Below the pieces are notes generated by a model, which searched no databases, was not told the DNA's origin, and saw only the letters and a list, made by a program, of their open reading frames with translations. The position numbers and the translations under genes were made by a program. This document shows positions 30,315 to 30,927 of a stretch of 64,000 nt of DNA, piece by piece (the first letter of the stretch is position 1; each line of letters begins with the position of its first letter). Source of the stretch: Eledone cirrhosa (taxonomy: Eukaryota); the NCBI GenBank assembly GCA_964016885.1, contig OZ024751.1:9920001-9984000 (forward strand), in the 5' to 3' direction.

Positions 30315-30927
30315 GACAGGCAAACCATATTTTAAATTAGTATTTTTCAACCTAGCTAACTTGGTCATTTGCAATTCGAACACATGTGTACTTGTATCAG
30401 TGTTCATCCCTCTCATATATACATTTGTATTACACGCCTCGGAAATATTCCCTTCTTTGAGCTATTTAATTGTAAAAGACTATTTCGAGTTTATAACTTA
30501 ATATATGATATTCTCGGCTCCATATGTAGAGTTAATGTTAGTCCCATAAAACCGGCTGCTATTTTTAGCGGCACGAGTATGAGACGAGTTAGGCGCTGTG
30601 ACATGCGCGTTCAACAACACATATTTCTCAGTCTTCTTAAGTATTTTGAAGTTAAAGGTACGAATTTCCTGGATACCCGCAGAAGATCACAGGGATAGTG
30701 ACTTTCACTTAATAATAATTTCGAAACAAATTTAGAATTTGTCCGGGTATCACGGCCATTGCCAATATAGGTTTGTTATTTTTATTGATTTATTACTTTA
30801 AATCGAGACAGGAAAGCCATATTATTTTAAATTAGTATTTTTCAACCTAGCTAACTTGGTCATTTGCAATTCGAACACACACATGTATACTTGTATCAGT
30901 GTTCACCCCTCTCATATATTCATTTGT
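30315..30927 (+). mobile_element. Short element with ~110-bp terminal direct repeats between (TA)n tracts
   Basis: 30315-30425 repeated at ~30807-30927; carries an HHR-like motif. Confidence 0.6.
30672..30751 (+). ncRNA. Hammerhead-like motif, family J (CAGAAGA core variant)
   Basis: GATACCCG-CAGAAGA-TCAC..GTGA(+~20 nt)-GAAA-CAAATT TAG AATTTG-TC-CGGGTATC; 8-bp stem I, 7-bp stem III. Confidence 0.6.

Follow-up and report, generated by a model that had tools for sequence, protein, structure and literature searches.

The 64-kb stretch of the Eledone cirrhosa genome analysed here (the window) carries, between two (TA)n tracts, an insertion of a repeat that we call family A, and within it a hammerhead-like motif at 30672..30751. 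The parts of the insertion and of the motif are:

30296..30311, no strand: short (TA)n tract at the 5′ junction
30315..30929, + strand: insertion of family A, retrozyme-like and non-coding, comprising about 1.25 tandem units of ~492 bp
30431..30511, + strand: 81-nt segment between the two fixed 3′ ends of family A (a Penelope-type 'tail')
30650..30671, + strand: 5′ leader, complementary to loop II (TTCCTG/CAGGGA proximally; distally AGTGAAAG/CTTTCACT in family A, with one mismatch in the window copy)
30672..30679, + strand: stem I, 5′ strand, GATACCCG, pairing with CGGGTATC over 8 bp
30680..30686, + strand: core CAGAAGA, i.e. C3-A4-G5-A6-A7-G8-A9, with U4 replaced by A4 at 30681
30687..30689, + strand: stem II, 5′ strand, TCA in the window copy against GCA in family A; G10.1 lost
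30690..30719, + strand: loop II insert of 30 nt, the partner of the leader
30720..30722, + strand: stem II, 3′ strand, TTC in the window copy against TGC in family A
30723..30726, + strand: core GAAA, i.e. G12-A13-A14-A15.1
30727..30741, + strand: helix III, 6 bp and a 3-nt loop, one pair being A-U or G-C depending on the subfamily
30741..30743, + strand: GUC triplet, with the cut predicted from sequence after C17 at 30743
30744..30751, + strand: stem I, 3′ strand, CGGGTATC
30807..30929, + strand: start of the next unit, a repeat of 30315-30430, up to the first fixed 3′ end of family A
30927..31037, no strand: long (TA)n tract at the 3′ junction, the likely target site

The initial annotation had placed here an element with a period of about 490 bp between (TA)n tracts, and in it an 8-bp stem I, a 7-bp stem III and a GUC site framing CAGAAGA instead of CUGANGA. 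The element is as described, with a period of 492-499 bp and TA tracts on both sides, and the stems, site and core all lie where they were placed, helix III of the window copy being CAAATT/AATTTG plus A15.1-U16.1, which makes seven pairs. The supposed terminal direct repeats turn out to be the overlap of a partial tandem copy of about 1.25 units rather than LTR-type ends. A search for the pattern C-N-GA-N-GA...GAAA with a stem I of at least 8 and a helix III of at least 6 gave one match in the 64-kb window and none in 100 block shuffles.

The enlarged stem II that had been proposed, a TCAC/GTGA hairpin with about 20 extra nucleotides, is the minimum-energy fold of the window copy only, and we rejected it because it requires a base unique to that copy. 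The base following the core is T in the window copy alone and G in 79 of 82 aligned copies from 71 loci (facing C9 of the stem in 77), an alignment for which 40 of the 71 loci were chosen with a pattern spanning this very base; among copies picked by flanking sequence beyond the ribozyme, 55 of the 62 that could be parsed have GCA/TGC as stem II. Family A is accordingly built with a 3-bp stem II containing G10.1-C11.1 and a loop II of 27-30 nt, and the indels and substitutions of its copies are concentrated in the loops. Two of the three stem II pairs are lost in the window copy through changes at 30687 and 30721, and this copy is probably inactive.

The substitution at position 4 is a property of the family rather than of this copy. 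In the 3.0-Gb genome, where the window's family A stretch gave 1,812 first-look candidates, an exact 22-nt pattern retrieved 210 family A copies with A4 and 2 with another base, and flank-picked sequences gave 71 distinct copies, of which two are truncated without a core and the remainder have A4 in 69 of 69 cores. Position 7 is A in 77 of 82 family A copies. The consensus of genomic copies, suggested at the outset as a check, thus has A4 fixed in family A, and likewise in the family B described below, and not CUGA. Family A has the layout of a type I hammerhead, with stems I, II and III around the junction and stem I open, supported by covariation, and C3, G5, A6, G8, A9, G12, A13, A14, A15.1-U16.1 and H17 are all present. 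It fails at U4, and is an A4 variant of the type I hammerhead rather than a canonical member. Of the earlier proposal of a natural core-variant class, the fixed variant stands, while 'class' is too strong a word for a single core substitution with close U4 sisters on the same scaffold.

The Rfam hammerhead models gave no match in the window at gathering score, an absence that counts against a working ribozyme. There is also no hammerhead family among the 74 Rfam matches at E ≤ 1 in four loci, one of which (L229) belongs to the canonical sister family A′, so A4 alone does not explain the missing matches. A covariance model made from 22 copies and run over 800 kb recovered only the window copy and the A′ locus L175, and did not pick up family B.

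Family A insertions carry several marks of Penelope-type integration. Their arms vary in where they stop on the 5′ side but share two fixed 3′ ends, separated by 81 nt, with 54 arms ending at each among 72 loci, and 82 of these 108 fixed ends are followed by (TA)n. Both orientations occur in 54 of the 72 loci, by variable 5′ truncation with an inverted 5′ copy, and in 38 of the 72 there is one arm at each fixed 3′ end, the tail thus being on one arm only. Variable 5′ ends, fixed 3′ ends and (TA)n targets have all been described from Penelope-like elements (PMC8557442). In 42 of 94 loci at least one arm is longer than one unit, which implies a multimeric or circular template, and the longest family A tandem has 2.24 units. 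Arms of more than 1.5 units are found in 5 of 94 family A loci against 10 of 49 loci of the U4 sisters (p=0.008), a difference that comes from A′ alone (9/25, against 1/24 in A″) and between sets that were picked differently. Searches with tblastn found no Hydra-type ORF continuous with the unit in 72 A, 30 A′ and 25 A″ loci, and the family A unit, whose GC content is 0.35, had no match outside its own relatives in the fetched loci. An endonuclease ORF beside the copy at L008, considered as a partner for family A, is part of a distinct family C insertion, which has a C4 hammerhead of its own. There was no pile-up of 5′ breakpoints at the cut site in A, in B or in the U4 controls alike, in counts inflated by a tripled reference, and a cluster of breakpoints at -25 is a product of mutations in the window copy. 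For a rod-like circular fold, the z scores (30 shuffles each) were -2.5 for the window unit, -0.65 for a stretch of L012 slightly under one unit and -3.7 for A′.

Loop II is complementary to the 22 nt immediately upstream of stem I, in such a way that one strand of the helix extends stem I and the other extends stem II without a gap. The duplex has a computed energy of -13.8 kcal/mol in the window copy and of -15.4 to -18.3 kcal/mol in five other copies, and between 0 and 3 of 300 shuffles were as low. It is kept with different sequence in A, A′ and A″ and covaries between the families, both in its proximal part (TTCCTG/CAGGAA versus TTCAG/CTGAA) and in its distal part (AGTGAAA/TTTCACT versus AGTGGAA/TTCCACT). 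By a geometric estimate, a linker of 7-10 nt can hardly span about 19 bp, and the full leader helix and stem II are probably mutually exclusive. Of five intact copies submitted to folding confined to nested pairs, four favoured the leader hairpin rather than the hammerhead, A″ being the exception; the hairpin appeared in L005 (subfamily A2), L318 (A1) and L175 (A′), while L004 (A3) and A″ formed stems I and III, in L004 without stem II. This preference is counted against a working ribozyme. The covarying leader-loop II pairing is conserved, and would fit a pseudoknot or an inhibitory hairpin alike.

The two sister families place A4 in an evolutionary context. A′, found in an evenly spaced 600-kb sample, is 71% identical to family A across the whole unit and has the core CTGAAGA, with U4 in 34 of 34 copies among the matches listed and a variable position 7; in A″, sampled from 25 loci, all 20 cores that were matched read CTGAGGA. 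Both share the whole unit with family A at 71-73% identity, and position 7 varies in them among T, A and G. Taking U4 as the general ancestral state (the three families by themselves give no root), A4 would have arisen on the A branch. Stem I reads GATACCCG/CGGGTATC in subfamilies A2 and A3, GATACCTG/CAGGTATC in A1, GGTACTTG/CAAGTACC in A′ and AGTGCTTG/CAAGCACT in A″; across A, A′ and A″, five of its eight pairs change on both sides, and the majority states contain no mismatch. In stem II, A has GCA/TGC, A′ has GAT/ATC, and A″ keeps two pairs. The A′ unit (L175:2115-2744; L229-L258) measures 538 bp, occurs in arrays of up to 2.63 units with a helix III of about 27 bp, and gave 2,687 first-look candidates; that of A″ (L330-L353) measures 557 bp, and its leader is able to pair into stem II itself. 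The idea that A4 goes with a stable helix III was dropped, as helix III is longer in the U4 sisters and long ones occur in other CUGA families too.

Compensatory change appears to have continued after A4 arose. Among 157 family A alignments, in which one locus may count twice, the second pair of stem I is C-G in 76, T-A in 54, T-G in 8 and otherwise in 19, and one pair of helix III is A-T in 98, G-C in 32, G-T in 10 and otherwise in 17. As A1 shares T-A with the U4 sisters, the switch of stem I pair 2 to C-G postdates A4, and on the aligned sequences the switch of the helix III pair is likewise placed after it. The four majority-state stem changes among the A4 subfamilies make up two complete pairs, with a rough chance of 0.003, for subfamilies that were themselves defined by the same sites. 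Between A1 and A2, 22 of 394 other sites differ and none of the 11 scored core sites, a count of zero that chance alone would give about half the time (11 sites at ~6%) and that is not significant on its own; A2 and A3 differ at 5 of 383 sites. Over 22 aligned copies, 92% of cells pair, and both sides have changed in 7 pairs against 2.5 in shuffles, an excess inflated by the relatedness of the copies. The earlier argument against simple decay gains from these paired changes and from the fixation of the same substitution in family B. That only two compensatory events postdate A4 is nonetheless counted against a working ribozyme.

The same core change in an unrelated family B had been pointed out in the initial annotation, and CAGAAGA is indeed found at 40774 (+), 40448 (-) and 14619 (-), within these motifs of the window:

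40769..40819, + strand: family B A4 hammerhead, in the terminal repeat of a Hydra-like Penelope element
40403..40453, - strand: family B A4 hammerhead, inverted arm
14574..14624, - strand: A4 hammerhead of family B, with a broken RT-endonuclease ORF of the same family upstream of it (~15540-16650, minus strand)

Genome-wide, at least 17,262 exact family B copies have A4 against 165 others; among the 100 of these 165 that were listed the other base is variously G, T or C, a spread that mutation following insertion would be expected to produce. The predicted cleavage triplet of B is CUU in place of GUC. Among 20 loci selected for the length of their ORFs, 5 have the B hammerhead on each side of the ORF, on the sense strand, and some ORFs are intact, at about 709 aa. 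Judged by these sequences, family B is the terminal repeat of a presumably autonomous Hydra-like Penelope element. Families A and B have no alignable sequence in common, and two origins of A4 are likely. Family C (L092:3770-4750; also L091, L093, L094 and L061-L090) has intact Hydra-like Penelope ORFs of 794 aa, and its terminal repeat contains a C4 hammerhead (CCGAAGA) with a U.U at the base of stem II and a stem II insert of about 80 nt. C4 is present in 44 of 44 matches, 43 of them CCGAAGA. Position 4 is relaxed in two further expanding families, B with A4 and C with C4, both of which share A7 with family A. The translated B and C proteins show a C-terminal endonuclease, DKT, CxCx5C, RWR (B) or RWK (C) and a short single ORF; Pfam found nothing in either. 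A link to the Naiads, which are said to lack hammerheads, found no support, B and C having C-terminal endonucleases.

In the 600-kb sample as a whole, 86 hammerhead hits comprise 57 with a C-U start, 11 with C-A (all family B), 2 with C-C and 16 with U3, while shuffles of the sample gave 3-5 hits, none starting with C. CTGAAGA cores, which combine A7 with U4, are common in canonical families of this genome. Single C4-core hits occur at L035:2030, L059:996, L095:995(-), L104:585, L104:3709 and L179:7448, several of them with long stem II inserts and a palindromic helix III, and a U3-A8 core covariation (TTGANAA) is found in several multi-copy families (L007:2487(-), L097:6116, L133:4386 and L171:7083).

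In a separate repeat of the window between TA tracts, at 31119-31548, a canonical minimal hammerhead-like motif (CTGAAGA, stem GGGC/GCCC, GAAA and a short helix III) is present twice, with a spacing of about 301 bp. The window has at least nine further canonical hammerhead motifs, which represent several families, at 11349, 11907, 17001(-), 18158(-), 18382, 32263, 35157, 38700(-) and 38980; Rfam at gathering score detects none of them. At 16880-17730 (-) lies a second remnant of a Hydra-like endonuclease, which has about 30% identity to family B and is followed by a canonical CTGAGGA hammerhead with the T-CC-loop-GG-T stem II design also seen in family B. A 47-bp satellite of about 54 copies at 90% identity spans 24630-27129, and a 39-bp direct repeat with 220-bp spacing, ending in (TA)n, lies at 29502-29760 and is possibly another short tandem element. 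Of the reverse transcriptase ORF remnants, those at 33500-34900(-), 43786-45500(+) and 60721-64000(+) are on their motifs presumably Penelope-like, and those at 53667-55413(+) and 55792-57399(-) presumably LINE-like.

Family A displays individual features found in several known systems. With the type I hammerheads described by Perreault et al. (2011, PMC3088659) it shares the three-way junction, 11 of the 12 other conserved core bases, G10.1-C11.1, the NUH site and a short stem II with a candidate pseudoknot between stem I and loop II, but its leader-loop II pairing measures about 19 bp, compared with the 4-6 bp of the pseudoknots described there. The core variants named in the text of that paper are U4C, U3-A8, A6C, A6a, U13a and U15.1-A16.1, and U4A is not among them. 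Animal non-LTR retrozymes (Cervera and de la Pena 2020, PMC7229834; Li et al. 2026, bioRxiv 10.64898/2026.07.22.740005) are similarly described as non-coding tandem units with one type I hammerhead each, low GC and a link to Penelope-like elements, but their units measure about 170-400 nt, against 492 bp in family A and 538-557 bp in its sisters, and they form long arrays and are expressed as linear and circular monomer RNA, whereas family A, known here from DNA alone, has a non-canonical core and mostly dispersed, inverted copies of about one unit. The Hydra clade of Craig et al. (2021, PMC8557442) resembles families B and C, a likeness drawn from motifs alone, in its C-terminal endonuclease, DKT, CxCx5C, RWK (as in C) or RWR (as in B) and (TA)n targets, and many of its hammerheads have the U.U at the base of stem II found in B and C; all 26 Hydra rows of its file S2 have CTGA, compared with A4 in B and C4 in C. 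Unlike Hydra clade elements, family A has no ORF. The Poseidon element PAc of the green anole (Frangieh et al. 2024, PMC11167929) has, like family A, two fixed 3′ ends that define a tail and is reverse transcribed through its hammerhead, and the two fixed ends of family A match the two reverse-transcription starts of PAc. PAc differs in its canonical core and in needing its own protein to cut (PMC11167929), and the tail of 81 nt in family A exceeds the 30-40 bp given by Craig et al. (PMC8557442). No report of a natural U4A or CAGA-core hammerhead was found in the text of the literature searched, figures (e.g., Perreault Fig. 5, S6 and S7) lying outside it; within the supplementary material covered, that of Perreault has no U4A and that of Craig neither the family A nor the family B motif. 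Penelope elements with hammerheads, retrozymes, hammerheads with pseudoknots and some variants of the core have been known before, and a natural U4A appears to be new.

We propose the following mechanism of how the family A motif might operate. Going by sequence, it is probably a working but slowed self-cleaving hammerhead, gated by its leader hairpin. In this model, the leader would first pair with loop II in a hairpin of about 19 bp that keeps the ribozyme inactive; of this leader helix, no more than the proximal 5-6 bp would persist in the cutting fold, as a pseudoknot between stems I and II. Stable helices I and III together with the leader-loop II contact would offset part of the loss caused by U4A, and a fraction of the multimeric transcripts would be cut after GUC, with circularisation possible as it is in the animal retrozymes already known. 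Uncut or re-joined RNA would be copied into (TA)n in trans, by a Penelope-like RT-endonuclease that most probably belongs to the Hydra type. Published work points both ways. A natural U4C is described as less active in vitro and yet as supporting viroid infectivity (PMC3088659), and no inactivating U4 mutant was reported among 46 point-mutant phage plaques, position 4 being described as the most tolerant (PMC4075628), both of which count in favour of a working ribozyme; against it counts a deep mutational scan in which every single mutant of the CUGA turn had low activity (PMC9901934).

It is unlikely, if still worth serious consideration, that the A4 motif no longer cuts and that its fold is kept for binding the RT-endonuclease or a host protein, or for protecting the RNA, with uncut multimers serving as the insertion template. 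Hammerhead mutants of a Poseidon element were inserted in vitro unaffected, and the Penelope hammerhead is reported to be dispensable for insertion in vitro, to cut only with its own protein and to leave no read ends at the site (PMC11167929), so copying success does not require cutting. Every hammerhead-bearing copy has also been reverse transcribed across the scissile bond, arms in 42 of 94 family A loci exceed one unit, and the rarity of arms above 1.5 units in A relative to its sisters, with the reservations given above, would agree with a silent fold. A fold kept only for binding accounts poorly, however, for the fixation of G5, A6, G8, A9, G12, A13, A14, U16.1 and C17 in the majority state of all five lineages, and for the recurrence of A4 in two unalignable scaffolds and of C4 in a third, always at the position described as most tolerant. 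It is less plausible still, and in our view improbable, that U4A killed the ribozyme in a master copy that was spreading for other reasons, the paired changes then reflecting template-switch repair of inverted repeats or chance. The small number of events after A4 (two), the short span over which they are counted (subfamilies ~6% apart) and a core test powerless on its own leave room for such a neutral relic. Set against it are the completeness of both changed pairs, the concentration of indels and changes in loops, the base of helix III that stays paired in A1 while the length of this helix varies widely, and the same substitution fixed in family B.

Hardly credible, by comparison, is a full compensation of A4, for instance by A7 or by the leader pseudoknot, which would give the ribozyme the speed of a U4 one. 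Families A, B and C have A at position 7, which varies in the U4 sisters, and pseudoknots between stems I and II are described as speeding hammerheads by orders of magnitude (PMC3088659). A7 is, however, common beside U4 in canonical families here, and no double mutant was reported to rescue the CUGA turn except a C3-G8 swap (PMC9901934).

A broader interpretation, which we advance tentatively and with more doubt than confidence, is that U4A would be a working natural core reached twice in one genome, and that the base at position 4 (U, C or A) may act as a rate dial in retroelements that need to cut their RNA and also to copy it uncut, in family A under a conserved leader switch of about 19 bp. 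The hammerhead core is treated as nearly invariant. Genome-wide searches in the literature covered have required or assumed CUGANGA, and on this interpretation would have overlooked a ribozyme family that ranks among the most abundant in this genome and probably in others; as the U4A family B accounts for 11 of 86 hits in 600 kb and has at least 17,262 copies by exact match, the number of animal hammerheads in current catalogues would be too low. On a single scaffold, family A and the U4 sisters provide a natural matched pair, which bears on whether, and how fast, Penelope-type elements and retrozymes need their ribozymes to cut, and in the leader-loop II helix there is a concrete candidate for the means by which the RNAs of retrozymes may keep their ribozyme inactive.
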